NCBI GenBank assembly: GCA_964607825.1
Contig: CAZSNA010000001.1
Coordinates: forward strand, 23,697-87,696
DNA length: 64,000 nucleotides
Source: an uncultured Fibrobacteraceae bacterium
GTDB lineage: Bacteria; Krumholzibacteriota; Krumholzibacteriia; LZORAL124-64-63
Direction of reading: 5' to 3'
Part shown: in pieces, positions 8,272 to 64,000 of the stretch
Layout: every line of letters starts with the position of its first letter
Position numbering within the stretch: the stretch's first letter is position 1
Made by a program: the position numbers and the translations under genes
Notes under the pieces: generated by a model
Database searches by the model: none
The model's input: only the letters and a program-made list of their open reading frames with translations
Told to the model about the DNA's origin: nothing

Positions 8272-10419
8272 CTGGGGTCCCCGGATTCTGGCGCGGGTGC
8301 GGCGGGGTCGGATCCCGCAGTCTCAGGGCCAAGTATCCAGGCGTAGACGGCCCGGTCAATCAAAACCTTCTCCACGTAGCGCCGGGTCTCCGGGTAGCCG
8401 ATCCAGGACAGGAAGACCTCGCCGGGCGCGCGCCCGCCGAGCTGGGCGTCCCAGCGCTTCACCGCGCCGGGACCGGCGTTGTAGTCGGCCAGACAGCGGT
8501 AGGGGTCGCTGTCGTAGCGACGGGCCGCCGTGGCCAGCAGCTCCAGGCCCGCCCCCACCGAGGCGCCGAGACGGCGCCAGGTCGCCTCGCCGTCGTGATG
8601 TCCGCGGCCGGGGTAATGGAAGGGCATGATCTGCATCCAGCCCAGGGCGCCCGAGCGGGAGCGCACGGCCGGATCGAAGAGGGACTCGTTGCGGGCGACG
8701 GCCAGCACCAGGGCCGGGTCGAGATCCGAGCCGTCGAGCCGGCGCCACAGCTCGGCGTCGCCGGGGACCGGATACAGGAGGCGCAGGTTCTCGTCCAGGC
8801 TCAAGCCCGGGCGCGACAGCGAGACCACGGCGGCGAGCTGGCCACGGGCGTCGTCCAGCAGGAGGGCGGCGCCGAGCAGGAGGTGGCGGTCCAGAACCGT
8901 CTCGTGCGCGTCGACCAGGTGCGGAATGGGCGTGGGGACCGCGGGGGGCGCCTGCGCCCCGTCATCGGCCAGACGGCGCAGGATCTCCCAGGCGCGGAGC
9001 TCATCGCGCCAGGGGCGGTCCGCCAGGGCGGACGGCAGGATCCGGCCCAGGGCGCTCATGGGGGCCTCTGCCCCACTTGCGGCCAGAAGATCGCCGTATT
9101 CGCGCCACCGGGGATCCTCGGGACGATCGGCGGCCAGTCTGCGGCCGAGGACGAGCCAGGCCCGGGCGGCCCGTGTCCGGGCGTTCAGGACCGATCCTCG
9201 CCCGGCCTCGACGCTGACGGGCTGCGCACGCCCCTCGCTCACCTGCGCCTCGTATCGGCCCAGACGCCCTGGCCGCGGCGTGGCGTCCGCTTCGCCGGCC
9301 AGGGCCGCGAGCAGTTCAGCGGCCCGCGCGCGACCCTGATGGGCCGTGAGAGCGGCCATACGCTCGATCTCCATGTTCACGCGGCGCAGCACGCGTCCCC
9401 GACCGCTGCGCTCGGCCAGCATGCGGGCGGCGCGCAGGTTCGGGATGACGCTGCCCCAGTAGCCGTCGCTCGCCTGCTTGTCGGCGGCCCGCCTCAGGTA
9501 GCCGGCGCGATGCTCGTCGGCGATCCCCGGCAAGGCGGCGAGTCGCTCGGCGGCCGCGGCCGTCCAGCCCAGCAGCCGCCAGCGTCCGCGCAACCAGTGC
9601 TCCTGATCTCTCGCGTTGACAGGGGGATCCGGGAATTGTCCGTAGTGACGTCTCAAGGACGACTCGCGCAGGACGGCCGCACCCAGAGCGCTGCGGGCGT
9701 CGGTCGCGTAGGGGGCGCGGTCGATGTCGCGGGGCCCGAGGCCCGGCGAGCGCAGGGCGGCCACGAAGCGGGCCGCCCTGTCGTCGGACGGCTTGTCGGG
9801 CAGCAGCGGCAGGCCGAGGTGCTCGCGACGGATCCGCCAGAGCGTCCAGCCCGTATCCCGATCGTAGGGGCCCAGGTCGAGGAGCTCGGGCCACAGGCTC
9901 GTGTCCCGGGTTCCGGGCACGATCCGCGCTTCCAGTCGACGCTTCCGCAGGGTCCAGACGAAACGCTCCAGCTCGTCGAGCCTGTGGGCGGGCACGGTCC
10001 TCAGGAGCAGGTCGATGGCTCGCAGGGCCAGTTCCGGCTCCCGAGGGGCCAGGTCGAGGGCGCGCTTGGCGAGCAGGCTCTCCGCGAGATCGTCGGGCAG
10101 CTCGGCCGCGGGGTCTGCGGCCAGGCTGTCGCGTGCCGACCATCGGGTCGCGGCGGCCGCCAGCCAGGCGGCGGCGCCGTCGGCCGTGTGGAGCCTGAGC
10201 GACGCGGGTTCGAGGCCGCGCATCCAGGCCGCCTCCCAGGCGGCCGACCAGTGCGGCGCGGCGAAGAGGTCGGCCGGCCAGCCGTCCACAGTCTCGACGG
10301 CGTCCGGGTCGCGGTACTTGCCGACGCGGGCGTCCTCCAGGAAGGGATCCACCAGGAGGTCGGCGGCGGCGGGAACGGCGAGGAGCAGACAGACGAACGC
10401 CGGGATCCATCCACGGTTC
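8268..10419 (-). CDS. slt: Slt70-like soluble lytic murein transglycosylase (true start at MNRGW, signal peptide; the track ORF is over-extended upstream)
   Basis: C-terminal SLT domain ...ARNESLFDPAVRSRSGALGWMQIMPFHYPG...ADYNAGPGAV. N-terminal signal MNRGWIPAFVCLLLAVPAAA. ATG at ~10417-10419 overlaps the stop of the upstream protease gene. Confidence 0.75.
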
Positions 10420-13108
10420 ATCTCAGCAGCACGACCTTTCGGGTCGGGGTGACGGCGCCGTCGGGCACCGAGAGGCGCAGCAGGTAGAGGCCGGCGGGCA
10501 GGCGGCGGCCGTCGTCGTCGCGACCGTCCCAGGATACGAGGTATGCGCCGTTCGGCAACCACCAGTTCCTCACGCGGCGGGCTCGGGCGTCGTAGGCGGA
10601 GAGGCGGGCGCCGATCGCTTCGGTGTGGACCTCGAGGAAGACCTCCCCCGCGCTGGGGTTGGGGCGCGGCAGGCCCAGGCTCAGCGCGGGTGGCGTAGCC
10701 AAGGCGCCCAGCAAGGCGCTGCGGGAGACCACCTCGCCGAGATCGATGCGGATGCGGCCACGGAGCAGGACCCGCGCGTCGCCGTAACCGTCGGGCAAGG
10801 CGAGCTGGGCGGCGGGGATCACCATGTCGTCGGCGGTCTGGCCCGCGGGCACGTCGCCGTCCCACACGGGACTCCAGGTGGCGCCGTTGTCCAGGCTCGC
10901 GTCGACCGAGATCCGCTCGGGCATCTCCCAGGGCCAGCTCAGGGCGACACCGCCCCGCGCCTCGTCCCAGGCGGCGGCGAAGGGCGAGCCCGGATCCGCG
11001 ACCAGATCCATCCGGCCGAGCAGCCATCCACGCCCCCGCCTGAGCCGGTCGCTGGCCAGCCGGAACTCGAGCCGGGTGCCGCCCGCCAGGTCTTCGGGGA
11101 AGACGAAGGTGTCCACGCGCCACACAGGGGCGTCGTCGTCGGTGAGGCCGCCGGGCGAGACGAAGGCCTCGCGGCCGTGCAGGGGATTCTCGACCGCGCC
11201 GTCCACGCGTCCGTCGTAGCCGCCGTCGGGGGTGAGCGTCGTGTAGTCGCCCTCGGGGTCGAGGTAGCTCACCAGGGCCCCGTCGCTGCCGGTCCCCGGC
11301 GTGAAGGCGTGGATGTCGACGGCGTGGATCAGGCGCAGGACCGAGCCCGGCTCGGGGATGAAGCGGGGCGAGGTCAGCCGGGCGTCGCCCAGGTTGGCGT
11401 AGAGCACGTCGGGCCAGTCGGAGCCGTCGCCGTGGGCGGTGGCCGTGCAGGCGAGCAGCGGCGCGTCGGGCAGCCCGGGGGCCGCCGCGGGGCTCCAGGC
11501 GAACCAGTGGGTGGTGCTGCCGATCGATGGCTCGGACCAGCCCGTCGCGAAGGGGTCGTCCAGGGCGAAGGGCTCGTCGGCGGGTTCCCAGACCCAGGTC
11601 CGCTCAACAGTCTCCAGCAGGGTCCCGTTCCGGAAGATCTGGACCGTGAATTCCGAGGCGTCGCCCGGTCCGGGCGTATCGCCGGGCTGCCAGACGATGG
11701 CCTCGGTCAGGATCCAGATGATGTGGTCGTCCCGCTCGAGAGACCGCTCGACCTGCAGGACGCCGGGGGCGAACCGCCCGAAGTCGTCGTAGTCGAGCTT
11801 GGTCACGATGACCGAGATCTCGTCGTCCCAGGCGGCATGGCCGGTCAGGACGATGTGGCAAGTGACCTCGCCGCCGTTGTCGATCATCGCGAAGTCGAGG
11901 TCGAAGGGGTTTCCGAGCAGGTCGTACATGAAGCTGTAGTCGTACGTGACGCCCTTGAACTCGAGTCGTGCCTCGGACGGACCCGCATACCCGTCGCTCG
12001 ACGGAGAAGAGTATGGACCGAACACGTCGCCGTCGCCGAAGAGGTCCTGCGGCCCGCCGGAGGTCTCCCCCGCGGCCACGTCGTCCACGCCGTCGGCCTC
12101 GACCAGGCGGACGCGCAGATGAGGGCTCGCCCCGGACGACACGGCGTCGTCCGGCACCGACTCGTCCACGTGCAGCACCTCGAAGCGGAGCTCCGGAAAG
12201 GCCGCGTCGTAGGGTGCGTCGTCGAAGCCTCCGCGCAGGCGCACCAGGAAGTACTCGCCGGGGTCGTCGGCGCTCGCGGGTATCCGGGTCACATGGCGTG
12301 GGGCGCGGATCACGGTGCCGGCGGTGCCGGACGACAGGACGGTCTCCTCGGCCCAGCCCAGTTCAAGCAGGCTGTAGGCGTCCGGCAGCGCGGCGCCGGT
12401 GCCGTCGCCCCGGCCCCAGGCCCCGGCGGCCATCAGGCTGACGGCGCCCAGGCCGCCGCGGCTGACGGCCGAACCGGGGTCGGCGGGCAGGTCCGTGTCG
12501 TAGCGGTCCTCGAGGCCGAGCAGGTGGCCCGTCTCGTGGGCCCACACGCCGGGTCCGCTGTGGAGGCTGGCGACGGCGTAGCTCTGGGCCTCGTGGCCGC
12601 CCTGGCGGTAGGGCTCCTCGAGGTAGAACTGCAGGGGCTCCACCCAGCCGTCGACGGGATCGTTCTCCAGGCCGGGCGCCGCATGGAGGATCAGGACGCC
12701 GTCGACGATCCCGTCGCCGTCGGCGTCGGCGGTCGCGAAGTCCAGCCCCGCCGCGTCGGCGCCGGCGATGGCCTCGGCCGCCAGGGCGCGGGTGCGCACC
12801 ACGCTGTGCGGGTTGTAGCGGTCCGAATACCAGGAGGTCTCCTCGACCAGATGGACCAGGGGCGCCAGGGTCACCCGCAGCACATCGCTGCGCCCGCTGG
12901 CGGCGTAGAAGTAGCGCTCGAGGGTCTCGGCGCCGAGGCCGGCCACCCGCGGCGTCAGGTCGCGGGCGGGATCCCAGTCCACGGGCAGACGCCGGTCGGC
13001 GAAATCGACGGGGATCACCAGCAGACGGAACAGGGGGCCGCTCTTGGCGGGGTCGGTGAAGGCCGTCCGCATGGCGTCGCGGCGCTCCGCCCGGCGCTCG
13101 CTCTGCAC
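10418..13108 (-). CDS. Immune-inhibitor-A-like M6 zinc metalloprotease with a type-A T9SS C-terminal sorting domain; the N-terminus is probably mis-called (see finding)
   Basis: M6 N-domain (LLVIPVDFAD) and HEXXH in VWAHETGHLLGLEDRYD. C-terminus has PNPSAGEVFLEV...YLVSWDGRDDDGRRLPAGLYLLRL...RKVVLLR (Por-secretion-tail-like). The track start is a GTG with no signal peptide. Confidence 0.75.
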   Translation of the reverse strand: MQSERRAERRDAMRTAFTDPAKSGPLFRLLVIPVDFADRRLPVDWDPARDLTPRVAGLGAETLERYFYAASGRSDVLRVTLAPLVHLVEETSWYSDRYNPHSVVRTRALAAEAIAGADAAGLDFATADADGDGIVDGVLILHAAPGLENDPVDGWVEPLQFYLEEPYRQGGHEAQSYAVASLHSGPGVWAHETGHLLGLEDRYDTDLPADPGSAVSRGGLGAVSLMAAGAWGRGDGTGAALPDAYSLLELGWAEETVLSSGTAGTVIRAPRHVTRIPASADDPGEYFLVRLRGGFDDAPYDAAFPELRFEVLHVDESVPDDAVSSGASPHLRVRLVEADGVDDVAAGETSGGPQDLFGDGDVFGPYSSPSSDGYAGPSEARLEFKGVTYDYSFMYDLLGNPFDLDFAMIDNGGEVTCHIVLTGHAAWDDEISVIVTKLDYDDFGRFAPGVLQVERSLERDDHIIWILTEAIVWQPGDTPGPGDASEFTVQIFRNGTLLETVERTWVWEPADEPFALDDPFATGWSEPSIGSTTHWFAWSPAAAPGLPDAPLLACTATAHGDGSDWPDVLYANLGDARLTSPRFIPEPGSVLRLIHAVDIHAFTPGTGSDGALVSYLDPEGDYTTLTPDGGYDGRVDGAVENPLHGREAFVSPGGLTDDDAPVWRVDTFVFPEDLAGGTRLEFRLASDRLRRGRGWLLGRMDLVADPGSPFAAAWDEARGGVALSWPWEMPERISVDASLDNGATWSPVWDGDVPAGQTADDMVIPAAQLALPDGYGDARVLLRGRIRIDLGEVVSRSALLGALATPPALSLGLPRPNPSAGEVFLEVHTEAIGARLSAYDARARRVRNWWLPNGAYLVSWDGRDDDGRRLPAGLYLLRLSVPDGAVTPTRKVVLLR

Positions 13109-19615: not shown

Positions 19616-21004
19616 TCAGTCGGTGGGCGCGCTGTAGCGGGGCAGGGTGAGGACCGGGTCTCCGTCTGGATTCCAGAAGTGGCACCGGTTGCGGCCCCTC
19701 TGCTTGGACAGGTAGAGCATGCGGTCGGCGTTGCGGTAGAGCTCGTCGGGCGTGTCGCCCCCGCCCGGGAAGGCGGCGCCCCCGAAGGAGACGGTCACGC
19801 GCAAGGGGGACTCCGCGTCGGGATCGGACAGACGCAGGTTGGCGATGCCCACCTGGATGCGCGTCACGATGTCGCGGGCCGCGTCGAGTTCGGTGTTGGG
19901 CAGCACCAGGGCGAATTCCTCCCCGCCCACCCGGCAGACCAGATCGATCCGGCGCAGGCCGCGGAGCAGTTCGCGGGCCACGGCCCGCAGCACGCGGTCG
20001 CCGGCCGGATGTCCGAAGCGGTCGTTGATGTCCTTGAAGTGGTCGATATCCCCGAGGAGCAGCACCAGCGTGGAGTTGCGGCGCTGCGCACGTTCGATCT
20101 CGAGGGCGATCTGCTCCTCGAAGAAGCCCCGGTTGTGGACGCCGGTCAGCGGATCGACGTGGACCAGGCGCGTCATCCGGTGGGCCTGGCGCCACCCGTT
20201 GGTGACGAAGCGCGAGATGCGGCGGGCGAGCCGGATCAGGCTTTCACGCTCCGTGCCGACGCGGGCCACGGCGTAGAGCAGGCCGGCCTCCGCGACCGCG
20301 GTCCCGTCCGGCGTCTCGAGGACCTCGCGCGGCGGATAGAGCGGCACCGCCACGCCGCCGTGGAAGTCGGCGTCGCCGTCCGTTGCCGCGGCTCGCAGAC
20401 GCGGGGGCAGCTCCTCGCGGTCATGGATCCACACGGCCTCGCCCGCGCGGCGGGACGAGGTCCAGAACGGGCGTTCGCCCTGCGGGCAGTGGGTCACGTC
20501 CGGCAGCGGGTCGAGACCCTCGAGCTCGTCGAAGAGCTCGACGTGAAGGTCCACGTCGTCGAAGGCGGGTCGAAGCATGTCCAGCACGCCCTGCAGCAGG
20601 ACGGCCTCGCCATCGCTGGCGGCCCGCGTGAGGTTCAGGTCCTGGGCCCGCTCCATGGCGTTCAGCACGCGCTCGTGCATGCTGAACTCGTTGCCGGGAA
20701 TGCGGTCGCCTCGGTCCGTTCCGGCGGGGTCGCGAGCGATGTCCGCAGGGGCTTCGCTGAAGATCGGCGCCAGATCCAGAAGCATCGAATGACCGCGGAG
20801 CGCGAAATGCCGGGCCGGGCCCTCGTCCTGGTCGCCGACCAGGACGCGCACCAGATCTCCCCGGCCGACCAGGGTCGCCACCAGCGTCCGTCCGGCCGCC
20901 TGCAACGCCGCGGTATCGCCGCCGGCCAGGGCCACGCGCAGGTCGTGGCGCAGCGCGGGTCCGATGCGGGCTACGGACATCAGATGTCGGATCAGGTCGA
21001 TCAC
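19616..21004 (-). CDS. Diguanylate cyclase (GGDEF) with an N-terminal ~290-aa uncharacterised (GAF-like) sensory region
   Basis: GGDEF domain with active-site GGEEF (RVGGEEFALVL) and DxLTG…NRG upstream motifs. Directly upstream of comEC on the same strand. Confidence 0.85.
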   Translation of the reverse strand: MIDLIRHLMSVARIGPALRHDLRVALAGGDTAALQAAGRTLVATLVGRGDLVRVLVGDQDEGPARHFALRGHSMLLDLAPIFSEAPADIARDPAGTDRGDRIPGNEFSMHERVLNAMERAQDLNLTRAASDGEAVLLQGVLDMLRPAFDDVDLHVELFDELEGLDPLPDVTHCPQGERPFWTSSRRAGEAVWIHDREELPPRLRAAATDGDADFHGGVAVPLYPPREVLETPDGTAVAEAGLLYAVARVGTERESLIRLARRISRFVTNGWRQAHRMTRLVHVDPLTGVHNRGFFEEQIALEIERAQRRNSTLVLLLGDIDHFKDINDRFGHPAGDRVLRAVARELLRGLRRIDLVCRVGGEEFALVLPNTELDAARDIVTRIQVGIANLRLSDPDAESPLRVTVSFGGAAFPGGGDTPDELYRNADRMLYLSKQRGRNRCHFWNPDGDPVLTLPRYSAPTD

Positions 21005-21185: not shown

Positions 21186-22919
21186 ATGAACCGACCGATC
21201 GTTCCGCACAAGGTCCTTCCCCTGTCGATGCTGTTGCTCCCCCTGCTGGCCTTCTGGGCGGGGTGCGCCGGCGTCCCGGATTCGTCCCCGCGAGCGGCGG
21301 TCGACGTCGATGCGGCCGTTCCCGTTCCGGCGCCCGTCGACACCGCCGCGACGACCGCAGAAGTCCTCGCGGAGCCCTCGCCTCCCCCGCAGGACGGCGA
21401 CGGCCTCGCGTTGCAGCGCGTGCTCGAGGAACGGCCCGACCTGGCCCAGCTCGATCGCGCCTACCGCCAGGCCCTCGAGCTCCTCTCCCGGGCCCAGTAC
21501 GAGGCCGTCGAGGATCTGCTCTTCCTGCTCAAGGGCGAGACCGTGACCACGGTGCCCGCGGACCGCGACAGCCTGGCCCGCGCCTTCCTGTCCAGCCTGG
21601 ACCGTCGCGTGGGCCTGCTGGCTGGCGTCCTGGCCGAGGACCGGACCCTGAGCACCTCGGTCGCCGCCGACGACTCCCTGCTGACCGAGGCCTACGCCAG
21701 CCTGAAGGGTCTGTCCTTTCCGGACTCACTGATCCCCGTCTCCGGCGAGCGGCGGCGCGAGCTCCAGCGCGATCTGCTGCTGGTGGAGAACGAGGCCGTC
21801 GACAAGTGGATGGCCTACTTCACCGGCAACGGCCGTCTCAGCGTGCAGGCGTGGCTCGACCGCAAGGCCGCCGTCGACTCCCTGATCTACGCGGGACTCG
21901 ACGCCGCGGGCCTGCCCCGGGAGCTCATCTACCTGGCGGCCATCGAGAGCGGCTTCAATCCGCGCGCCCGCTCCGAGGCCGGCGCGGTGGGCACCTGGCA
22001 GTTCATGGCCAGCACCGCGCGCCATTTCCACCTGCGCTGCGACTGGTGGGTGGACGAGCGCCAGGATCCCGAGATGGCCACCCGCGCGGCGGCCACCTAC
22101 CTCTCCCAGCTTTACCACCACTTCGGCGACTGGGCCCTGGTGCTGGCCGCCTACAACACGGGCGAGCACAGGGTCGACCGCGCCATCCGCCTGGCCGGGC
22201 ACGACGACTTCTGGCGCCTGCACCTGCCCTGGCAGACACGCAACCACATCCCCAAGTTCATCGCCGTCGCCCGCATCTGCGAGGACCCGCTGGCGTACGG
22301 CTTCGAACCCACCGTCGCGCCCGCCCTCGGCTACGACGTGATCGACGTGACCGATGCCACCGACCTGGATCTCATCGCCCGCTGCGCCGACGTGGCGTCG
22401 GACGAGGTGGTCGCCCTCAACCCCGCCCTGCTCCGACGGGCCACGCCCCCCGGCCGCTCGGACTACCCCGTGCGCGTTCCCACCGGCACGGGCGCCCCGG
22501 CCCTGCGCGCCCTGCGCTCGATCCCCCTGGCGGAGCGTCTCACCTGGCGGCGCCACGTGGTGGAGCGGGGCGAGTCCCTGGGCGCCATCGCGGATCGCTA
22601 CGGCACCTCGGTCCGCGACATCGCGCGTCTGAACGGGATCGACGACGTGGCCCTCATCCATCCGGGCGACCGGTTGCTGATCCCCATGCCCGCCGAACTG
22701 GCCGAGCGGGCGCGCCTGCGCGTCGCCGAGAGCGGTCATTACGTGCCCCCTTCGGGCTACGAGCGCGTCAGCTACCGGGTTCGCTCCGGCGACACCCTCA
22801 CCGGCATCGCACGCAAGCTCGGCGTCACCCTGCGGCACCTGCGGCGCGTGAACAACATGCACGGCAACGCGCTGATCCGGCCGGGCGATCGCGTCTATGC
22901 GTACAGACCCCCGCGGTAA
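21186..22919 (+). CDS. mltD: Membrane-bound lytic murein transglycosylase D-like lipoprotein (SLT domain plus two C-terminal LysM domains)
   Basis: Lipoprotein signal MNRPIVPHKVLPLSMLLLPLLAFWAGCAG, SLT core AAIESGFNPRARSEAGAVGTWQFM...AAYNTGEHRV, and two LysM repeats (YVVERGESLGAIADRYG..., YRVRSGDTLTGIARKLG...). SD aagga before the ATG. Confidence 0.8.
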   Translation: MNRPIVPHKVLPLSMLLLPLLAFWAGCAGVPDSSPRAAVDVDAAVPVPAPVDTAATTAEVLAEPSPPPQDGDGLALQRVLEERPDLAQLDRAYRQALELLSRAQYEAVEDLLFLLKGETVTTVPADRDSLARAFLSSLDRRVGLLAGVLAEDRTLSTSVAADDSLLTEAYASLKGLSFPDSLIPVSGERRRELQRDLLLVENEAVDKWMAYFTGNGRLSVQAWLDRKAAVDSLIYAGLDAAGLPRELIYLAAIESGFNPRARSEAGAVGTWQFMASTARHFHLRCDWWVDERQDPEMATRAAATYLSQLYHHFGDWALVLAAYNTGEHRVDRAIRLAGHDDFWRLHLPWQTRNHIPKFIAVARICEDPLAYGFEPTVAPALGYDVIDVTDATDLDLIARCADVASDEVVALNPALLRRATPPGRSDYPVRVPTGTGAPALRALRSIPLAERLTWRRHVVERGESLGAIADRYGTSVRDIARLNGIDDVALIHPGDRLLIPMPAELAERARLRVAESGHYVPPSGYERVSYRVRSGDTLTGIARKLGVTLRHLRRVNNMHGNALIRPGDRVYAYRPPR

Positions 22920-24162: not shown

Positions 24163-25743
24163 CTAACCCAGTCCGTACTTCTTGAGTTTCCGATAGAGCG
24201 TGCGCTCGCTGATGCCCAGGCGTTCGGCCGCCAGGCGACGCTTTCCGCCGGTCGCCCGCAGGGCCTGTTCGATCAGCGCGTGCTCGGCGCTCTCCAGGTC
24301 GCCGTCGCCGGCGACGGGTTCCGTCGAGTAGCCGGCCTCGCCGGCGAAGGTGTCCACGACGCGGCCGTCGAAACCCACCGGTCCGCCCACGGGACCGTCG
24401 ACCGACAGGGCCGCCTTGATCCGCTTCAGGTCCTCCCGCATCTCCAGCAGGGTGGCCATGATCAGTTCGGTCTCCCGCCCCGCCGTCATGGGGCCCACGG
24501 GCACCGGCAGCCGGTCCGCCCGGCCGGGCGCCCGGCCCGTGAGGATCTCCTCGGGCAGGTCCGCGGTCTCGATCATGCCGGTCTGCTTGAAGACGGCCAT
24601 CGACCGGATCGCGTTGCGGAGCTCACGCACGTTGCCGGGCCAGGGATAGGACGTGAGCAGATCCAGCGCCGGGCGGGCGATGCCGCGCAGGGAGAAGCCG
24701 TGCTCGCCGTTCTCCTGCTCCAGGAAGGTCCGGGCCAGGATGGGGACGTCCTCAGGCCGGTCGCGCAGCGGCGGCGTGGGGATGACCACCACGCGCAGAC
24801 GGTAGTAGAGGTCCTGGCGGAAGCGCCCGGCCTCCACCTCGGCGGCCAGGTCGCGATGGGTGGCCGCCACCAGGCGGATATCGCTGCGCTCGGTGCGGGT
24901 GCCGCCCACGGGCGTGAACTCCCCCGTCTCCAGGGCGCGCAGGAAGCGGGTCTGCATGGCCAGGGGCAGCTCGGCCACCTCGTCCAGGAAGAGGGTGCCC
25001 CCGTCCGCGCGCTTGAAGACGCCGTCGTGACGGCTCACCGCGCCGGTGAAGGCGCCCTTCTCGTGACCGAAGAGCTCGCTCTCCAGGACGCCCTCGCTCA
25101 GGGCGCCGCAGTTGAGGCTGACGAAGGGCTTGTCGGCGCGGCGGGAATGGTGATGGAGGGCGCGGGCGACCAGCTCCTTGCCGGTGCCGCTCTCCCCGAG
25201 CACGAGCACGTTCACGTCCAGGGGGGCCGCCTGGGCGATCAGGGCGATCATCTGGTTGACCGCGCGCGAGCGGCCGGCGATGCCGCTGCGCTGGCGCACC
25301 TCGCGCAGCTTGAGCAGCCGCTCCACCTCCAGCCGCAGCTCGTCCGCGCCCACGTTGGGCGCGAGCCGCCGCAGGGCGCCGCGATGGGGCTCGTCCTGCA
25401 GGCCCGACAGCACGGCCGGCGTGCCCAGCAGGATGAGGTCGGCGTCGCCCTTGAGGGTCAGGAACTTCTCGACCACGTGGCGGGAGCGGCCGAACTCGGC
25501 GGTGTCGAAGATCAGCAGGGCGCCCTCGCCCTCGGCGAAGAGGGCCAGGGCCTCCGAGGGGGAATCGTGGAGGCTGAGATCGACGCCCGGCAGGTGCCAG
25601 TCGGCGACGGTCTTGTAGAGGGCGGGTCTGCGTCCCAGGAGCGCGACGACGTGCGACACGGAAGGTCCTCCTGCTATTCTGTCAGACGATATGACATGCG
25701 AGCGCTCGGCGAGTGCGCGGCCAATCCGCTGATACGATAGCAT
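24163..25743 (-). CDS. fleQ: Sigma54-dependent transcriptional activator, FleQ/FlrA-like (degenerate N-terminal receiver-like domain, AAA+ sigma54-interaction domain, C-terminal Fis-type HTH)
   Basis: Walker A GESGTGKELVARALH, GAFTGA motif (EKGAFTGA), HTH GGKRRLAAERLGISERTLYRKLKKYG. N-terminal ~140 aa lacks the DD/phospho-acceptor pattern. Sits at the edge of the flagellar cluster. Confidence 0.75.
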   Translation of the reverse strand: MLSYQRIGRALAERSHVISSDRIAGGPSVSHVVALLGRRPALYKTVADWHLPGVDLSLHDSPSEALALFAEGEGALLIFDTAEFGRSRHVVEKFLTLKGDADLILLGTPAVLSGLQDEPHRGALRRLAPNVGADELRLEVERLLKLREVRQRSGIAGRSRAVNQMIALIAQAAPLDVNVLVLGESGTGKELVARALHHHSRRADKPFVSLNCGALSEGVLESELFGHEKGAFTGAVSRHDGVFKRADGGTLFLDEVAELPLAMQTRFLRALETGEFTPVGGTRTERSDIRLVAATHRDLAAEVEAGRFRQDLYYRLRVVVIPTPPLRDRPEDVPILARTFLEQENGEHGFSLRGIARPALDLLTSYPWPGNVRELRNAIRSMAVFKQTGMIETADLPEEILTGRAPGRADRLPVPVGPMTAGRETELIMATLLEMREDLKRIKAALSVDGPVGGPVGFDGRVVDTFAGEAGYSTEPVAGDGDLESAEHALIEQALRATGGKRRLAAERLGISERTLYRKLKKYGLG

Positions 25744-50913: not shown

Positions 50914-52340
<1,427 letters not shown>

Positions 52341-52344
<4 letters not shown>

Positions 52345-54674
52345 GACATCTCCTGTTCCTGGGCGGCCGGTGCGGTCTCCTCGGAGTCCCGCAAGTCGGG
52401 CAACAAGATGGCGAAAATGGTGCCGTTCCCGTCGCAGTCGACGGAAATGCGGCCGGCGTGGGCCTTGACGATCTTGCGGCAGATGGACAAGCCCAGGCCC
52501 GTGCCTGAGTTCTTGGTCGTGTAGAAGGGACGGAAGATGCGGTCGCGGTCCGCGGGCGCCACGCCGGGCCCCTCGTCCGTGACCGCGAGACGGAAACCGG
52601 GGCGCACGCGGGACTCCCCGCTCACGGGGTCGTCCACCAGCAGGTCGTCCACGCGGGTCAGGGTGGCCGAGACGGTGCCGCCGGCGGGCGAGGCGTCCAC
52701 GGCGTTGAACAGCAGGTTCAGCACCACCTGCTTGAGCTGGGTGCCGTCGGCCGCGAGGGTCGCGCTCTCGCCGCGGGGCAGGTCGCGCCCCAGGCCCAGC
52801 CGCACGTCCTTGTCGTCGGCGCGGGGGCGCGCCAGCACCAGGCTGTCGCGCAGCAGGCGGTCGAGGTCCACGTGGCCGAGTTCGGGTTCGTAGGGGCGCA
52901 CGAACTGGAGCATGCGGGTGATGGTGTCGTTGATCCGGCCCACCTCGCCGGTGATCACGTCGATGTAGCGGCGGCGCGGGTCGTCGTCCTCCAGGTTGTC
53001 GCCGAGCAGTTCGGCCTGGGCGCTCAGGCCCATCAGCGGATTGCGGATCTCGTGGGCCAGGGCCGCCGACATCTCCACCAGGCTCTCCAGGGCGTCGGCG
53101 CGGCGGGTCTCCTGGGCCAGCCGCTTGACCGGGCGGAGGTCCTCCAGCACGACCACGCGCCAGAGCTCGTCGCGGGCGCGGCCCGGCATCAGGTGGGCCT
53201 GGACCATCACCGGGACCGCGGTGCCGTCCGCGCGCACGACCCGCCCCTCCCCGTAGAAGGGCTCGGGATCCTCGTGCTTGAAGGCGGCCAGGGCCGGCCC
53301 CTCCTGGTCCTCCAGGCGCAGCATGGCGTCCAGGAGCAGTTCCGGCAGACCCTCCAGGTGGAAGGTGTCGCGGCGGAAGAAGGCCGAGGTGGACCCGGTG
53401 TCGTCGGGGTGGCGACCGCGTCCGAGGGCCGTGTCGGGCTCCGTGATGATGCGCGGCGCTTGGGCGCGGCCGGTGACCAGTTCGCGGCCGCCCCGGTTGC
53501 AGAAGATGGTGCGGCCCAGGTCGTCCAGAACCCAGATGCCGCTGTCCACCGCCTCGAGCACCCGCGAATTGAAGGTGCCGAGCTCGCGCATGCGGTCGAG
53601 CATCTGGGCCGCCGCCACCTCCTCGGCCAGGATGATCTGGGCGGTGCGCAGGAAGGCGAGCTGGCCGCTGGTGGCCGTGCGCGGCTGGAAGTCCAGCAGC
53701 AGCAGGTAGCCGAGGCAGGCGTGCATGTGGTCCAGGGACAGGGCCGCCACCACGGGCAGCGTGTCGTCGCGCTCCGCTTCGGGTTCCAGGGTGATCACGA
53801 CGGGCTCGCCGGGATCCCCGTCCTCGCGCCGGCGTTCGGCCTCGAGACGGGTCAGCACCCGGTCCCAGCCCTCCTCGTTCCAGTGGAAGGTCTGGCGGGG
53901 CGCGAAGGGGGCGTCGGGCGCGGGACGCAGCACCAGGGCGGCGCCCTGGGCGCCCACGAAGTCGGCCATGGTGCCCAGGAGCGACTCGAGGGTGCTGTCC
54001 CAGTTGGGCGTGGTGCTCAGCTCGCGCACGATGGTGTAGAGCAGCGAGAGCTGGTCCATGTGCTCGGTCAGGGCCTGGTTGGCCTCTTCCAGGCGCAGGT
54101 GCGAACGGGCCAGATCGTCACCGGCGCGCACGAGTTCCACCTGCAGGCGTTGACGGTGCTCGAGCAGCCGCTCGGTGGTCTCCTGCTGGGCGGCCTCGAG
54201 ACGATCCGCCTCGTCGAAGACGGCCAGACGCGCGCCAACCCGCTGGAGCAGGTCTTCCCACGCCGCGTCGTCGCCCAGGGGGATCGCGTCGAAGAGGCCG
54301 GCGCGGAAGCAGGCCGGCAAGAGCAGGTCCTCGCTGCCGTCATGGAGCAGGACCGGCAAGGCGGCGGGGTTGATCACGCGCAGGGCCCGCACGAGTTCGG
54401 GCAGATCCGCGGCGGCGCGTCGTTCGCGCGTCAGGGGCAGGATCACGAGCATGGGCCGGGGCCCGTCGGACGCTCTCGCGCGCAAGTCCACGAGCAGATC
54501 GCTCGCCGCGGCGTGGAAGATCAACTCGTCGGTCGTGGCCGGAACCAGGTCGGTCCAGGCGGAATCCGCGACCACGAGAATGGGAAATCGATCCGGATCT
54601 CGATCTGAAAAACGAAGTGGCACGCCGCCCCCCGAGCGCTCGAGTCGTCGATCACTGGAACCGCTGTCGGACAA
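52341..54674 (-). CDS. fleS: Cytoplasmic sensor histidine kinase (FleS/FlrB-like) with a long N-terminal region (pseudo-receiver-like plus PAS/GAF-like). Apparently a TTG start
   Basis: HisKA H-box LAHEIRNPLMGLSAQAELL, HATPase_c N/G boxes (NLLFNAVDASPAGG…DEGPGV…GTGLGLSICRKIV). No TM helices seen. An in-frame TAA lies 9 codons upstream of the TTG. Confidence 0.8.
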
Positions 54675-58343: not shown

Positions 58344-58672
58344 TGGATCCCGATCTCAACCGACTGATCGCCCTGACCGAGGAGATGTCCGTCGCCTTCG
58401 CGCGCGACGATCTCGACCGGTGCGCCGAACTGCTCGACGCCCGGGGCGGCCTGCTGCGCGATCTGCATGCGCGCTACGGTCCCGGCGGCCCTCTCCCCGT
58501 CCCCGAGGGCCTGCAGCGGGTGCTGGACGAGGTCAACGCCCAGGACCGGGCCCTCGAGGCGCGCCTGACCGGCGCCCTGGCCGAGACGGGTCGTCGTCTC
58601 GGTGACCTGCAGCAGAAGACCCGCCGCGGCGGCGACGGGTCGAGCGGGATCCACCTGAATCGGCGAGCCTAG
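58344..58672 (+). CDS. Small helical protein downstream of fliS (FliT-like position); GTG start
   Basis: ~109 aa, L/A/R/D/E-rich heptads (…[37 protein letters not shown]…[19 protein letters not shown]…), high GC3. The competing minus-strand ORF is Arg/Gly/Pro junk. Confidence 0.35.
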
Positions 58673-58914
58673 TCGGTCTCTTCCTCTTCCTTCTTGTCCT
58701 TGTCCAGGAACTTCTTGGGATCGGGCTGATCCGAATCGGCGGCCTTCATGGTGATGTTCTTGATCTCTTCGTAGATCTCGTGACGGTGGACCGGAATCGA
58801 GCGCGGCGCGTCGATGCCGATCTGGACCTGGTCGCCACGTATATCGACGATCATGATCGAGATGTCGTCCCCGATCATGATCTTCTCGTTGCGCTTGCGG
58901 CTCAGGATTAACAC
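58669..58914 (-). CDS. csrA: Carbon storage regulator CsrA (81 aa, acidic C-terminal tail)
   Basis: [51 protein letters not shown]… is near-invariant CsrA. Tail is …[11 protein letters not shown]. Confidence 0.93.
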
Positions 58915-58963
58915 GGGACCTCCATGTCTCCGCGGTACTCCAATGGGACCGAACGTCGTGCGG

Positions 58964-59536
58964 TCAGCGCACGTCTACGAGCTCGGCCTCCGGGTCGCGC
59001 ACCGTCGGTTCCGCCGACCCATCCTCATCATATCCACCCGTCATGGCCTTGTCCACCGCTGTTCCGACCACCGTCTCGGGGTGTCCGGCGGCGTAGGCCT
59101 GGCAGGCCTCGCCGAACCTGAGCTGGTTGATCTCGTGTCGCATCCCGTAATGACCGCTCTCGAGGATGCACTGTATCCCCTTGCGGTTCTTCACGTTGAC
59201 GACCAGGGGCGCCGACAGGTTGCCCGTGATCCGCTGTCCGCCGGGGTGGACCGTGGAGATGATCATCACCACGATGTCTTCCACGTCCTCGGCGTTGATG
59301 ACCGCCTGCGAGGCGTCGTCGATCTCGAAACTGTAGGCCTCGGTGTAGAAGCCGGGGTCCGTGATCGGCAGTCGGAAGCCCTCGCGATCCAGGCTCTGGA
59401 GCCATTTCATGGGCAATACGGGCTCCATGTCAACCAGAATCCAGCGCTTAAGCTCCGGCAGGCCGACCAGACCGTTCCGGAACGTCAGCACGTCCTCGGG
59501 CCTGTGGGTGCGGGTCTCTTCGTTCGCCTGGCTCAT
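58964..59536 (-). CDS. fliW: Flagellar assembly factor FliW (CsrA antagonist), with a C-terminal extension
   Basis: …[20 protein letters not shown]…[23 protein letters not shown]…[20 protein letters not shown]… matches the FliW family. fliW-csrA adjacency. Confidence 0.85.
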
Positions 59537-59566
59537 GATCTCTCCTTCGTGAGGCGGCCGCCGCCG

Positions 59567-61117
59567 CTACAGGTAGTCGAACAGGTTCATCTGCAACATC
59601 TCGCTGGAGACTCTCAGGCTGGCCTCGTAGGACACCTCGGCCTGGCGCAGGTCCGAGGTCACCTGGATCAGGTCCGCGTCCCGCACCTCGGCGAGATTGC
59701 GGTTCAGGTTGTAGTCCCGGTCCATGTTCAGGCCTTCCATCCAGTCCAGCATGTTCTCGCGGGCGCCGACCTTCACCTCGAGGGCCAGCAGGTGGTCCTC
59801 GATGGCTTCCAGCTCGCCCAGCGCGCGTTTGACGCCGTCCGAGTCGGCGGCGTCCAGGGCGTCGCGCAGGCTCTCCAGCACGTCGAAGATGCGATGGGGC
59901 GCGCCCGTGCCCAGCAGACCCAGCCGCTGGGCCGTGTCGTCGCCCGTGACCGACCTCACCTCGAACACATCGGCGTTGCTCGAGACGATCTTGACGGAAT
60001 TCTCGCCCAGCTCGAGGGTCAGGGGCGGCAGTCCCGCCGCCGTGACCTGGGCCTCGAAGAGGGTCTTGACGTCGTCCAGGGTGGCGGCGGTGGACAGGTC
60101 GATCAGCGCCGTGGTCCCGTCCAGTACCACCTCCAGGTTTCCCAGGGGCAGACCGCCGACCAGGCTCTCGATATCGACCAGGGCCGTGGTCCAGTCGGGC
60201 GAGAGCCGGATGTCGTGGCCGATCACCACGCCGTCCGCGGCCGTGCCGGTCAGGCCCAGCGAGAGCGCCGTGTCGCCGCCGTCCACGTCCGAGACGGTCA
60301 GGGGGCCGCCGCCGGGATCGGTGAGCGTGATCCCGGTGCCGTCCGCCGAGATGGCGGCCGTCAGGCCCGCGGCGTTCAGGATGTCGAGTATGTCCTGCAC
60401 GGTGCCGGCGCCGGAGAGGTCCACCTCCAGGGGGACGCCCAGGCTGCCGGTCCAGGTGATGGTGCCGGGGGTCCAGCCCTCGCCGTAGCCGATGTCGCTC
60501 AGGGAGTCGGCGCCCGTCAGCCGCGGCGACAGGTCGCCGAAACCGTACAGGCTCGACTCGCTCGAACCCATCAGGTCGCTGCCCGGTATGTTCACCGCCA
60601 TCTCGGTGTTGGGCCCGATCTGCACGTTCATCACGCCCTGGTCGCCCTGGTAGAGCACCTGTCCCCCGCTGTTCACGAAGGCGGCGTGATCGGTGCGGTG
60701 ACCGCCGAAGAGCGAGTTGCCCTCCTGGGTCTGGTTGAGGATGTTCAGGGCCGCCTGGATCATCTGGTCGACCTCTGCGGCGGCGACGCGGCTCGATTCG
60801 ACCGTCCAGGTGGCGTTGAGCTGCTCGCGTCCCGAGTCGCGGGCCTCGCGCATGAGCTCCACCAGGTCCAGCAGGGCCGCGTCGGTCTGCTCCACGAAGG
60901 TGCGGGCGCGGATGATGTTCTCCTGGTACTGGGCGTTCTCCTGGATCAGCAGCTCGTAGCGCTGGATCAGGCCCACCGCCTGCGGGTCGTCGGCGTAGCT
61001 GTTGACGCGACGGCCGGTGGAGACCTGTTCCTGCAGCTCCGTCATGCGTCCCAGGTTGGTGTGGGAGTGACGGTAGATCAGGCTGGCGATCTGTTGGCTC
61101 GTGACGCGGGTCAGCAT
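59567..61117 (-). CDS. flgL: Flagellar hook-associated protein 3 FlgL (516 aa)
   Basis: Flagellin-like N-terminus MLTRVTSQQIASLIYRHSHTNLGRMTELQEQVSTGRRVNSYADDP and C-terminus …EVSYEASLRVSSEMLQMNLFDYL. Confidence 0.85.
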   Translation of the reverse strand: MLTRVTSQQIASLIYRHSHTNLGRMTELQEQVSTGRRVNSYADDPQAVGLIQRYELLIQENAQYQENIIRARTFVEQTDAALLDLVELMREARDSGREQLNATWTVESSRVAAAEVDQMIQAALNILNQTQEGNSLFGGHRTDHAAFVNSGGQVLYQGDQGVMNVQIGPNTEMAVNIPGSDLMGSSESSLYGFGDLSPRLTGADSLSDIGYGEGWTPGTITWTGSLGVPLEVDLSGAGTVQDILDILNAAGLTAAISADGTGITLTDPGGGPLTVSDVDGGDTALSLGLTGTAADGVVIGHDIRLSPDWTTALVDIESLVGGLPLGNLEVVLDGTTALIDLSTAATLDDVKTLFEAQVTAAGLPPLTLELGENSVKIVSSNADVFEVRSVTGDDTAQRLGLLGTGAPHRIFDVLESLRDALDAADSDGVKRALGELEAIEDHLLALEVKVGARENMLDWMEGLNMDRDYNLNRNLAEVRDADLIQVTSDLRQAEVSYEASLRVSSEMLQMNLFDYL

Positions 61118-61134
61118 GGCATCGCTCTCCGGGT

Positions 61135-62508
61135 TCAGACCATGTTCAGGATCGAGTCGAACATGTCCTGGGCCATCGCGATCACCCTCGCGTTGGCGTT
61201 GTAGGCATTCTGGTACAGGGCGAGATTGGCGGCCTCCTCGTCGAGGCTCACGCCGCGGACGCTCTCCAGCCTCATGTCCAGGGCGTCGACCAGCTGCTGC
61301 TGGCCCTCCACCCGGTAGCCGCTGGCCGACGACTCCGCGGCCAGGTCGACCACGATGGCCGTGAAGAGCTCGGTCATGCTCATGCCGTCGGCCACGTCGG
61401 TGTCGCCCTGGCCGAGGGCCGCGATCTCCAGGGCGATGTCGGCGTCGCCGGACAGGTTGGAGCGCGAGGTGGCGATGTGGCTGGGATTGTCCACCAGCCG
61501 GGCGTTGACGGCGATGTCTGCGGCGGTGCTGCCGGTGAAGAACATCAGGCCCCGGCCGCCGTCGCTCAGGCCCTCGGCATGCAGCGCGTTGACCCGGTCG
61601 ACCAGGGTGCCCACCAGCTCGTCGAGCTGGGCGCGGGCGCCGAGAACCTGCTCGTCGCGGGCGATCATCAGCCCCTTGATCAGACCGTCGCCCAGGTTCA
61701 CGTCGAAGCGGCCGTTCTTGACGCTGATCTCCACGCGGCCCGGCTCCAGGTCCTCCCCCGGCGCCACGCTCACCTCCAGGTGCTCCACATGGTCGCGGGT
61801 GACCAGGGTGCGGCCCGAGAGGATCACGTCCAGCGTGCCGTCCGAGCGCTCCTCGATATCGACCCGCGCCAGCTCCGTCAGCTCGGACAGCAGGGCGTCC
61901 CGGTGGTCGCGCAGGTCGTTGGCGGGGGTGCCCGAACTCTCGGCCGCCACGATCTGGCGGTTGTAGTCGCCCACCGCGGTCAGCAGCTGGTTCATCTGCC
62001 CCACGCCCGCCACGATCTGGTCGTCCAGGTCCTGGGCCAGATTCATCAGGTTGGCGTCCATGGCGTTCAGGTCCAGCACCAGGCGCTCGGCGCTGCCCAG
62101 CACCTCCTCACGCAGCACGGGATCGTGGGACGGCGTCGCCAGGGTGCTCCAGGCCGTGAAGAACTGGGTCATGGCATCGCCCAGGTGGTTGTTCTCCACC
62201 GAGCCGAAGATCATCTCCACGTTGCTCAAGGCCAGGTTCTCGGAGTCGTACTGGGCCAGCAGCGAGGACTGGTCTCGGCGCTGGGCCACCAGGAAGTTGT
62301 CGGTCTGGCGGCTGACGTCCACGATCTGGGTGCCGCTGCCCAGCAGGCCGTAGGCGGTCAGGACGCCCGGCGTGCTGCCGGACAGGGCCCGCTGCCGCGA
62401 GAAGCCCGGCGTGGCGGCGTTGGCGATGTTGTGGCTGGTCGTCTGCATGGACGCGCCGGCCGCGAACATGCCCGTCAAGCCGATCTGCAGGATGTTGTTC
62501 AGGCTCAT
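61135..62508 (-). CDS. flgK: Flagellar hook-associated protein 1 FlgK
   Basis: N-terminal MSLNNILQIGLTGMFAAGASMQTTSHNIANAATPGFSRQ and C-terminal …EEAANLALYQNAYNANARVIAMAQDMFDSILNMV. Confidence 0.9.
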   Translation of the reverse strand: MSLNNILQIGLTGMFAAGASMQTTSHNIANAATPGFSRQRALSGSTPGVLTAYGLLGSGTQIVDVSRQTDNFLVAQRRDQSSLLAQYDSENLALSNVEMIFGSVENNHLGDAMTQFFTAWSTLATPSHDPVLREEVLGSAERLVLDLNAMDANLMNLAQDLDDQIVAGVGQMNQLLTAVGDYNRQIVAAESSGTPANDLRDHRDALLSELTELARVDIEERSDGTLDVILSGRTLVTRDHVEHLEVSVAPGEDLEPGRVEISVKNGRFDVNLGDGLIKGLMIARDEQVLGARAQLDELVGTLVDRVNALHAEGLSDGGRGLMFFTGSTAADIAVNARLVDNPSHIATSRSNLSGDADIALEIAALGQGDTDVADGMSMTELFTAIVVDLAAESSASGYRVEGQQQLVDALDMRLESVRGVSLDEEAANLALYQNAYNANARVIAMAQDMFDSILNMV

Positions 62509-62517
62509 CTCGTCTCC

Positions 62518-63054
62518 TCAGGCCTGCTTGACGATGACGCCGGCGCAGGCGCCGCTCGCCTCGCCGCCGCGGGCGTCGTAACAGCCGTCCTTGCCGCTCA
62601 CGCCGCGACGGAGGATGTCGGCCTCGGCGCCCACCATGTCCAGACAGAAATCGGCCAGCAGCCCGTTCAGGGCGTTCTGGCGCATGAGTTCACCGGTCGT
62701 CTTCTCCCACGCGCGCAGGTCGGCGCGCAGGGCGCGTCCGGTCTCGCCCGTGGTGCTCCGCGCCAGACGGCTCATGCGGAGCTCGTCCGTCCCGATGCCG
62801 TGGCGGCGGCCCAGCTCCAGCAGATAGGTCTCGCGGGCGCGGCGCGCGTCCTCGGCCACGGGCAGCCGGTCGGTCCAGGTGGCGACGACCTCGGCCAGGT
62901 GCACCACGTCCTGGCTGCGCAGCCACTCGTTCTGATGCTGCGCCAGCTCCAGCAGCTCGCCGTAGGCCCGCGCTTCGGCCCTCAGCAGGGCCCGCAGGTT
63001 GTCGGCCTCGGCTCTCGAGAGAGGAGCTGTGGTGCGCTGGGTCGGGGTCGTCAT
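62518..63054 (-). CDS. FlgN-family-like protein (putative FlgK/FlgL chaperone), 178 aa
   Basis: …ADNLRALLRAEARAYGELLELAQHQNEWLRSQDVVHLAEVVATW…LLELGRR… has the FlgN-like heptad pattern. Located immediately upstream of flgK as in flgN-flgK-flgL operons. Confidence 0.45.
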   Translation of the reverse strand: MTTPTQRTTAPLSRAEADNLRALLRAEARAYGELLELAQHQNEWLRSQDVVHLAEVVATWTDRLPVAEDARRARETYLLELGRRHGIGTDELRMSRLARSTTGETGRALRADLRAWEKTTGELMRQNALNGLLADFCLDMVGAEADILRRGVSGKDGCYDARGGEASGACAGVIVKQA

Positions 63055-63071
63055 GATGTCGTCTCCGTGTC

Positions 63072-63950
63072 TCAGGGCGCGAAGCCCAGGCTCGGGTTTC
63101 CGTCCAGGTCGCCGTACATGGCGCCCACCTTCTGCACGTAGGTGCGGGTCTCGGCGAAGTCCGGCACCACGTCGCCCGCACGTCGCACGTTGCCGGGGCC
63201 GGCGTTGTACGCGGCCAGCACCAGATCCAGGTCGCCGCCGAACTGCTCGCGCATGCGGGCCAGGTAGCGGACGCCGCCGCGGATGTTCTGGACGGGGTCG
63301 AAGGGATCGTCCACGCCCATCTCGGCGGCCGTGCCCGGCATGAGCTGCATCAGGCCCTGGGCGCCGGCCCGGGAGACGGCGTCCGGCCGTCCGCCCGATT
63401 CCTGGACCATGACCGCCAGCACCAGCTCCGGCGCCAGGTCGTGGTCGCGGGCCGCGGCCTCGATCTCGGGTCCCCAGCGACGCAGGGTGTCGGCCGCGGC
63501 GCCGCCCAGGGCATGGGCCCGCTCCGTCAGGCCGCTGGTGTCCCGCCGAGGCGCGCGTCGATCGGCGTCCGCATAGGCCGCCAGGGCGCGGTCGATCTCG
63601 GGCCCCAGCCGGCTCGTCGCGGGCAGCGGCGCGAAGGTGTCGACCGGCAGCGCGCCGCCGGTGCGGTCGTCCGGGATCGGCGCCATGCCCGGCCCGTCCC
63701 GGGTGTCGGGGGCCCCGTCGCCGTTCACGTAGGGCTCGTACTGGCGGGTCACCATCTCGGCGATGCCGAGTCCGCCTGAACCGCCGATGCGGTCGGCCAT
63801 GGCCTCGTCCAGCATCTGCTTGTAGGTGTCCATCTCGCCGCCGCCGGTCAGCTCCGAGGTGGGCACGGTCTGCCGCATGGTCTTCATGAGCGTCTGCACG
63901 AACAGGGACTCGAAGTGCTCGGCGGCCTGGTGGAGCTTCGACAGACGCAC
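63072..63950 (-). CDS. flgJ: FlgJ-like protein: N-terminal rod-binding domain fused to a C-terminal SLT lytic transglycosylase domain (N-terminus may extend beyond the called GTG or past the window end)
   Basis: Rod-binding motif …KLHQAAEHFESLFVQTLMKTMRQ…. SLT core …LVLAVMVQESGGRPDAVSRAGAQGLMQLMPGTAAEMG…LAAYNAGPGNV. The open frame continues upstream (…APPSAPDLPGGPDARE) to the window edge without a canonical start. Confidence 0.7.
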   Translation of the reverse strand: MRLSKLHQAAEHFESLFVQTLMKTMRQTVPTSELTGGGEMDTYKQMLDEAMADRIGGSGGLGIAEMVTRQYEPYVNGDGAPDTRDGPGMAPIPDDRTGGALPVDTFAPLPATSRLGPEIDRALAAYADADRRAPRRDTSGLTERAHALGGAAADTLRRWGPEIEAAARDHDLAPELVLAVMVQESGGRPDAVSRAGAQGLMQLMPGTAAEMGVDDPFDPVQNIRGGVRYLARMREQFGGDLDLVLAAYNAGPGNVRRAGDVVPDFAETRTYVQKVGAMYGDLDGNPSLGFAP

Positions 63951-64000
63951 CTCGCGCGCGTCGGGACCGCCCGGCAGGTCCGGCGCGGACGGCGGCGCGG

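Follow-up and report, generated by a model that had tools for sequence, protein, structure and literature searches.

A FlgJ-type protein pairing a Rod-binding domain with an SLT lytic transglycosylase domain in a bacterial flagellar operon

The window (the whole stretch of 64,000 nucleotides of DNA analyzed here) carries a minus-strand gene, flgJ-SLT, whose product joins the N-terminal Rod-binding scaffold domain of FlgJ to a family-1 (SLT) lytic transglycosylase domain in a single polypeptide. This gene is very likely the organism's flgJ, encoding a two-module protein that would act as a rod cap exported by the flagellar type III secretion system (T3SS) and would carry a tethered lytic transglycosylase that cuts peptidoglycan. 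The fusion is real, conserved and under-annotated; it overturns no model, fits those that exist and is of the kind expected from domain shuffling.

Three classes of FlgJ are distinguished in a recent paper (PMC13584718, 2026, J. Bacteriol., after Nambu et al., 2006): those with a C-terminal peptidoglycan-hydrolyzing domain, those with a C-terminal peptidase and those that consist of the scaffold only, with a separate enzyme. In Rhodobacter sphaeroides, the separate enzyme SltF is Sec-exported and is recruited non-covalently by FlgJ, both proteins being encoded in flagellar operons (PMC7277832). In Borrelia, the SLT domain of BB0259 is needed for the passage of the flagellum through the peptidoglycan and the protein interacts with FlgJ (PMC8517470). 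Family-1 lytic transglycosylases cut between MurNAc and GlcNAc and leave a 1,6-anhydro-MurNAc end (PMC8517470).

Gene and domain architecture

The coding sequence extends on the minus strand from a stop codon at 63072-63074 up to the very edge of the window, where the reading frame is still open (63072..>64000), the 3' 308 codons and the stop lying inside the window. The preliminary description had noticed the open frame, suspected a longer protein and advised extending the contig to find its N-terminus; the suspicion was right. The public contig L001 overlaps the window over 10,929 nt with 1 mismatch and therefore comes from the same organism. In L001 the gene starts with a GTG codon, preceded by GGAG and situated 7 nt past the flgI stop, at the window-equivalent position 64056-64058, i.e., outside the window and 58 nt or 20 codons past its edge. 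The full-length product has 328 residues and is also found as a called protein (P0001), which matches the window part at 100% identity and is 20 residues longer.

In the 308-residue part inside the window, Pfam detects the Rod-binding domain (PF10135) at residues 39-86 (49.2 bits, cut-off 25.1, E 7.6e-13) and the SLT domain (PF01464) at residues 179-276 (104.7 bits, cut-off 21.3, E 2.8e-30), and returns no match to Glucosaminidase/GH73 (PF01832) at E ≤ 0.01. In the numbering of the full protein, which we use from here on, the Rod-binding domain occupies residues 59-106 (63741..63884, minus strand). The same pairing of a rod-binding domain with an SLT core had been read from motifs alone in the preliminary description; the Pfam scan that it proposed bears it out at both ends of the protein, the C-terminal domain being SLT and not GH73, and the motifs that it quoted (EHFESLFVQTLMKTMRQ, VMVQESGGRPDAVSRAGAQGLMQLMP and AYNAGPG) are all present in the translation of the ORF. 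Of the full-length family models of NCBIfam, that for FlgJ (TIGR02541) reaches 68.1 bits against a cut-off of 193 and matches only in its N-terminal half (profile positions 21-183), and the best-scoring model for the C-terminal domain, that of the BB0259 family (NF047373), reaches 94.9 bits against a cut-off of 234 in a match confined to profile positions 546-681, i.e., the SLT part. Scores below both cut-offs are what would be expected of a chimera, and the protein is an equivalog of neither family.

An AlphaFold2 model of the full protein, built with a 20-sequence alignment, predicts a disordered N-terminus (residues 1-29), a Rod-binding region of three helices (32-64, 74-93 and 99-111 within residues 32-111), a linker at about residues 112-152 (63603..63725, minus strand), one further helix (residues 153-168) and an all-helical lytic transglycosylase fold at residues 174-319 (63102..63539, minus strand) with pLDDT > 95, inside which the Pfam SLT match lies (63171-63464, minus strand). 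The linker is modeled with low confidence (pLDDT < 50 at residues 125-150) and predicted to be disordered; it is of low complexity and rich in Pro, Ala, Gly and Asp, and the gaps in the alignment indicate that its length and sequence differ among homologues.

The N-terminus of the product has no hydrophobic stretch, its maximum 12-residue Kyte-Doolittle mean being 0.34, compared with 2.56 for the Slt70-like protein and 2.39 for the MltD-like lipoprotein that are encoded elsewhere in the window, both of which have obvious signal sequences. The combination of a disordered N-terminus with the absence of a Sec signal suggests that the protein may be a rod-type substrate of the flagellar type III export gate.

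The flgJ slot of the flagellar operon

Together, the window and L001 give an operon in the order flgF-flgG-flgA-flgH-flgI-[Rod-binding-SLT]-flgN-flgK-flgL-fliW-csrA. flgN (62518..63054, minus strand; PF05130, E 6.4e-14) lies 17 nt downstream of flgJ-SLT in one operon with it, and is followed by flgK (61135..62508, minus strand) and flgL (59567..61117, minus strand), both identified by Pfam, the latter through a match to Flagellin_N only. The canonical gene order flgI-[X]-flgN-flgK-flgL supports the identity of the gene between flgI and flgN as flgJ. This slot is occupied in the same way in four distant relatives, whose products are 38-47% identical to that of flgJ-SLT, hence in five lineages in all: the order flgF-G-A-H-I-[X]-flgN-K-L of L001 is also found in L010 (bacterium HR20), L085 (the 4.2-Mb chromosome GCA_942493235.1) and L086 (a JGI contig), all of which keep the synteny flgI-[X]-flgN-flgK. 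The genomes with this synteny are Krumholzibacteria/Latescibacteria-like, KSB1 and of the Kapabacteria/Ignavibacteria/Chlorobi type, and all belong to the FCB group.

The same genes could be read as encoding a flagellum-targeted lytic transglycosylase for which the Rod-binding domain is a docking tag only, with a single-domain FlgJ encoded elsewhere in the genome as the scaffold. Contacts between proteins are what Rod-binding domains mediate, so that one might in principle be a mere tag, and the sequence inspected amounts to ~74 kb of the genome. We nevertheless consider this reading unlikely: it has to accommodate a protein that sits in the exact flgJ slot, from flgI to flgN, in five lineages and whose match to the N-terminal part of TIGR02541 (positions 21-183) exceeds the 50-residue Rod-binding core, and a six-frame search of the window and L001 (~74 kb) with an HMM of the family's N-terminal domain found no second FlgJ N-domain. 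Within the flagellar supercluster, flgJ-SLT is the sole FlgJ candidate.

That search covered nearly the whole flagellar gene set. The supercluster fills ~38 kb of the window (26630-58672 and 58669-64000) and includes fliA, flhF, flhA, flhB, fliR, fliP, fliM and fliL; motB, motA, flgE (698 aa), flgD, fliK, fliI, fliH, fliG, fliF, flgC and flgB; and a sigma-54 two-component pair, flagellin, fliD, fliS, fliT, csrA and fliW. The genes for FlgH and FlgI lie just outside the window, and the flagellum is therefore of the diderm type.

Several further features of the supercluster deserve mention in their own right. FlgL, at 516 residues, is unusually long, with a long middle region that has no Pfam match, and the length is kept in L086 (515 aa). 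Directly downstream of flgL, and likewise in L086, lies the csrA-fliW pair (58669-58914 and 58964-59536, both minus strand), which we take to be the partner switch of FliW, CsrA and flagellin that has been described in Bacillus and Campylobacter. In L085, a gene of the 23S_rRNA_IVP family (PF05635; 6446-6790) is inserted between flgN and flgK in an otherwise conserved operon. Regulators flank the flagellar genes, along with fliA: a sigma-54-dependent response regulator and a histidine kinase resembling FlrBC/FleSR (50914-52344 and 52341-54674, both minus strand) and a second sigma-54 activator (24163-25743, minus strand), which, taken together with fliA, suggest a sigma-54/sigma-28 flagellar hierarchy. 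A small PilZ-domain gene is found just upstream of flgF in two lineages (L001, 5100-5495; L086, 31-417) and a GGDEF diguanylate cyclase is encoded at 19616-21004 of the window, a hint of c-di-GMP control of motility.

Catalytic core, distribution and origin of the fusion

Structural comparison of the C-terminal domain with Foldseek gives Pseudomonas aeruginosa Slt, Neisseria LtgA, MltF, MltC and E. coli Slt70 as the best matches, with a probability of 1.00, and residues 174-319 thus have the goose-lysozyme-like all-helical fold in both the AlphaFold2 model and the Foldseek comparison. Searches of the PDB with the single protein and with a profile likewise match this domain to lytic transglycosylases; they gave SLT-domain matches only, and no solved FlgJ N-domain was found among them. 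The predicted catalytic acid is Glu220 of the E-S motif (codon at 63399..63401, minus strand), which phmmer aligns with the catalytic E503 of P. aeruginosa Slt, the residue replaced in PDB 6FC4, described as the inactive E503Q mutant. The GLMQ motif (residues 235-238; 63345..63356, minus strand) and the AYNAGPG motif (residues 283-289; 63192..63212, minus strand) can be read directly from the sequence and, like E220-S221, are invariant in 20 homologues and at least 90% conserved in 150 homologues. Judged by these residues, the lytic transglycosylase core is intact.

The domain could in principle be catalytically inactive or bind glycan only, anchoring the cap to the peptidoglycan without cutting it, and such a reading can point to Salmonella, which is able to build flagella without the catalytic activity of its FlgJ (PMC13584718). 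That 150 diverged homologues keep every family-1 catalytic motif, Glu-Ser dyad included, at a level of at least 90% is however the pattern expected of an active enzyme under purifying selection, and makes the inactive alternative very unlikely.

The fusion extends well beyond one genome. An exhaustive HMMER search of 1.84 billion cluster representatives at 50% identity returned 399 matches at E ≤ 1e-30, and among the best 150 of these 399 cluster representatives the SLT domain is present in all (150/150) and the Rod-binding domain as well in 116/150; with both domains kept in so many representatives, selection maintains the fusion. Almost all of the best 120 clusters at 90% identity carry PF10135 together with PF01464, and their source names, where given, are Candidatus Krumholzibacteria or Latescibacteria metagenome-assembled genomes (MAGs). 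A scan of species-representative genomes returned mostly SLT-only matches and sets a lower bound on the taxonomic spread: full-length relatives occur in at least two MAGs labeled 'Fibrobacteraceae', a KSB1 MAG, a MAG labeled Chloroherpeton and bacterium HR20, with no cultured species identified among the matches listed in that scan. A protein search seeded with the HR20 sequence adds MAGs of Kapabacteria, Ignavibacteria, Chlorobi, Bacteroidetes and the 'FCB group'; many of these relatives align over their full length, yet their Rod-binding part is too diverged for a precomputed Pfam call. The Rod-binding-SLT protein is therefore a conserved orthologous form of flgJ in the FCB group, present in a large set of mostly uncultured bacteria, and not a one-off. 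The architecture had been called less common in the preliminary description; this holds for the model organisms that have been studied but not for metagenomic data, in which the protein forms a large and diverse family, as the count of 116/150 shows, and the description needs correcting in that the architecture is common, not rare, in FCB-group bacteria. In a Gastranaerophilales (Melainabacteria) MAG (L037, 6007-6663), a 218-residue SLT protein matches residues 80-315 of the query, a stretch that reaches upstream of the SLT domain; no Rod-binding domain is detectable in it.

That the fusion is an artefact, in which adjacent single-domain flgJ and sltF-like genes became joined through a frameshift from sequencing or assembly or through loss of a stop codon, might be entertained in view of the low-complexity linker and of split FlgJ and SltF systems with both genes in flagellar operons (PMC7277832), but its probability is negligible and the conserved architecture effectively refutes it: the identical 328-residue product is called on 11 public contigs that stem from several independent sequencing runs, the uninterrupted architecture is shared by more than 100 diverged homologues, third-position GC is 0.94 over the entire ORF, a value expected of a real gene given the 69.5% GC of the window, and the SLT part begins with neither the signal peptide nor the start context that a separate Sec-exported SltF would need.

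As the preliminary description had noted, two further SLT genes occur in the window, and both are real. One encodes a Slt70-like protein of 717 residues with a signal peptide (8268-10419, minus strand) and the other an MltD-like lipoprotein with an SLT domain and two LysM domains (21186-22919, plus strand); these are ordinary housekeeping lytic transglycosylases and not part of the flgJ-SLT feature. With the SLT domain fused to FlgJ, theirs share no more than 34-37% identity, on which grounds we rejected a recent local duplication as the source of the module. Among the matches listed, the nearest SLT-only relatives, from Desulfosarcina (L012) and Myxococcota (L009), are 58-59% identical, and their non-flagellar neighborhoods led us to reject descent from a dedicated flagellar SLT lineage as well. 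By its sequence relatives, the SLT module looks to have been recruited from a generic small SLT enzyme. The window also encodes, at 10418-13108 (minus strand), an 896-residue protein with a weak match to M6 (immune inhibitor A) metalloproteases and an HETGHLLGL motif. The C-terminal tail of this protein (...LYLLRLSV...KVVLLR) looks similar to sorting domains of type IX secretion, as would suit a member of the FCB group.

Relation to known FlgJ systems and proposed function

With the dual-domain FlgJ of beta- and gamma-proteobacteria (Salmonella; TIGR02541), flgJ-SLT shares the N-terminal Rod-binding scaffold domain, and it resembles Salmonella FlgJ in size (328 versus ~316 residues), in having no Sec signal, in the position of its gene directly after flgI and in the principle of joining a scaffold to a module that cleaves peptidoglycan. 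The catalytic module is different: a family-1 lytic transglycosylase (GH23, PF01464) here, a GH73 beta-N-acetylglucosaminidase there. Since the enzyme belongs to this family, it would act on another bond than GH73 FlgJ and yield another product, the SLT form being predicted to cleave the other glycosidic bond (MurNAc-GlcNAc) non-hydrolytically and to leave 1,6-anhydro ends. The M23-fused FlgJ, class 2 in PMC13584718 (after Nambu et al., 2006), likewise bears a non-GH73 wall-cleaving domain on the scaffold; its peptidase acts on peptide cross-links, whereas flgJ-SLT would be a transglycosylase that cleaves glycan strands.

The FlgJ and SltF of R. sphaeroides provide the same two functions, encoded in flagellar operons and brought together at the rod (PMC7277832), but do so as two polypeptides, of which SltF has a signal peptide, is Sec-exported and finds FlgJ via its C-terminus. 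In flgJ-SLT, one polypeptide without a signal peptide would localize the enzyme covalently, with export presumably through the flagellar T3SS. A comparison with this split system, also recommended in the preliminary description, sets the present protein apart from SltF-type enzymes in that a single ORF contains the FlgJ domain and lacks a signal peptide. Borrelia burgdorferi, in turn, combines a single-domain FlgJ with BB0259 (LTase-Bb; NF047373), which has the same ES-GLMQ-AYNAG SLT domain; BB0259 is a 717-residue lipoprotein with a large unrelated N-terminal region, and its SLT part alone matches flgJ-SLT. The housekeeping family-1 enzymes Slt70, P. aeruginosa Slt, MltF and MltD have the same fold and catalytic motifs, but are equipped with Sec or lipoprotein signals and with accessory domains of other kinds.

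By analogy with Salmonella FlgJ (PMC13584718, PMC8517470), we propose that FlgJ-SLT would be handled as a rod-type substrate and exported by way of the flagellar type III gate. Its helical Rod-binding domain would then cap the growing rod (FlgB/C/F/G) at its tip and serve as scaffold there, a role suggested by its domain family, and the flexible linker of ~40 residues would hold the family-1 (GH23) lytic transglycosylase in place. The enzyme would cleave MurNAc-beta-1,4-GlcNAc bonds directly ahead of the rod, producing 1,6-anhydro-MurNAc ends; the rod would pass the opened peptidoglycan, after which the P and L rings (FlgI, FlgH) would form. FlgJ and PleA form another non-covalent partnership, as do FlgJ and SltF and FlgJ and BB0259, in alpha-proteobacteria and spirochaetes. 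The covalent fusion may fill the role of these partnerships and that of the GH73 domain in the FlgJ of beta- and gamma-proteobacteria, namely to confine the cutting of the wall to the site of assembly. The precedents of SltF (PMC7277832) and BB0259 (PMC8517470) support the reading of the protein as a FlgJ scaffold with its SLT enzyme. The hydrolase activity of Salmonella FlgJ improves assembly and is not strictly required (PMC13584718), so by analogy the role of the SLT module may be an auxiliary, non-essential one.

The domain databases already annotate Rod-binding and SLT on these proteins, and the names given to them are 'Rod binding domain-containing protein' for some in JGI and the less informative 'transglycosylase SLT domain-containing protein' in NCBI. 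We found no description of a Rod-binding-SLT fusion in the full-text literature accessible to us, and none in PMC13584718, PMC8517470, PMC7277832, PMC6913195, PMC6403190, PMC7198779 or PMC8781033; the key older papers may contain a mention. Where genes are named after the SLT domain only, flgJ looks absent from many FCB-group genomes, and a dedicated family model would cure this under-annotation.

Passage of the rod through the cell wall varies by lineage, and to the three FlgJ solutions given in reviews the fusion would add a fourth. Taken as one claim, and with somewhat more in its favor than against it, our reading is that Rod-binding-SLT is an unrecognized fourth class of FlgJ, the standard flgJ of much of the FCB group, the result of an independent fusion, a T3SS-exported protein and a 'Rosetta-stone' fusion. 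If this is true, Rod-binding-SLT stands beside the GH73-fused, M23-fused and single-domain forms; much of the FCB superphylum (Krumholzibacteria, Latescibacteria, KSB1, Kapabacteria, Ignavibacteria and Chlorobi-type bacteria) would have it as the standard flgJ, and it would have come about when the scaffold was fused independently to a small SLT enzyme of a generic kind. The proposed mechanism, if correct, further implies that the flagellar type III channel can export a GH23 enzyme in unfolded form. As a 'Rosetta-stone' fusion, it would make the FlgJ-transglycosylase partnership of alpha-proteobacteria and spirochaetes a general one, and its conservation would give independent evolutionary support to the partnership described from Rhodobacter and Borrelia.
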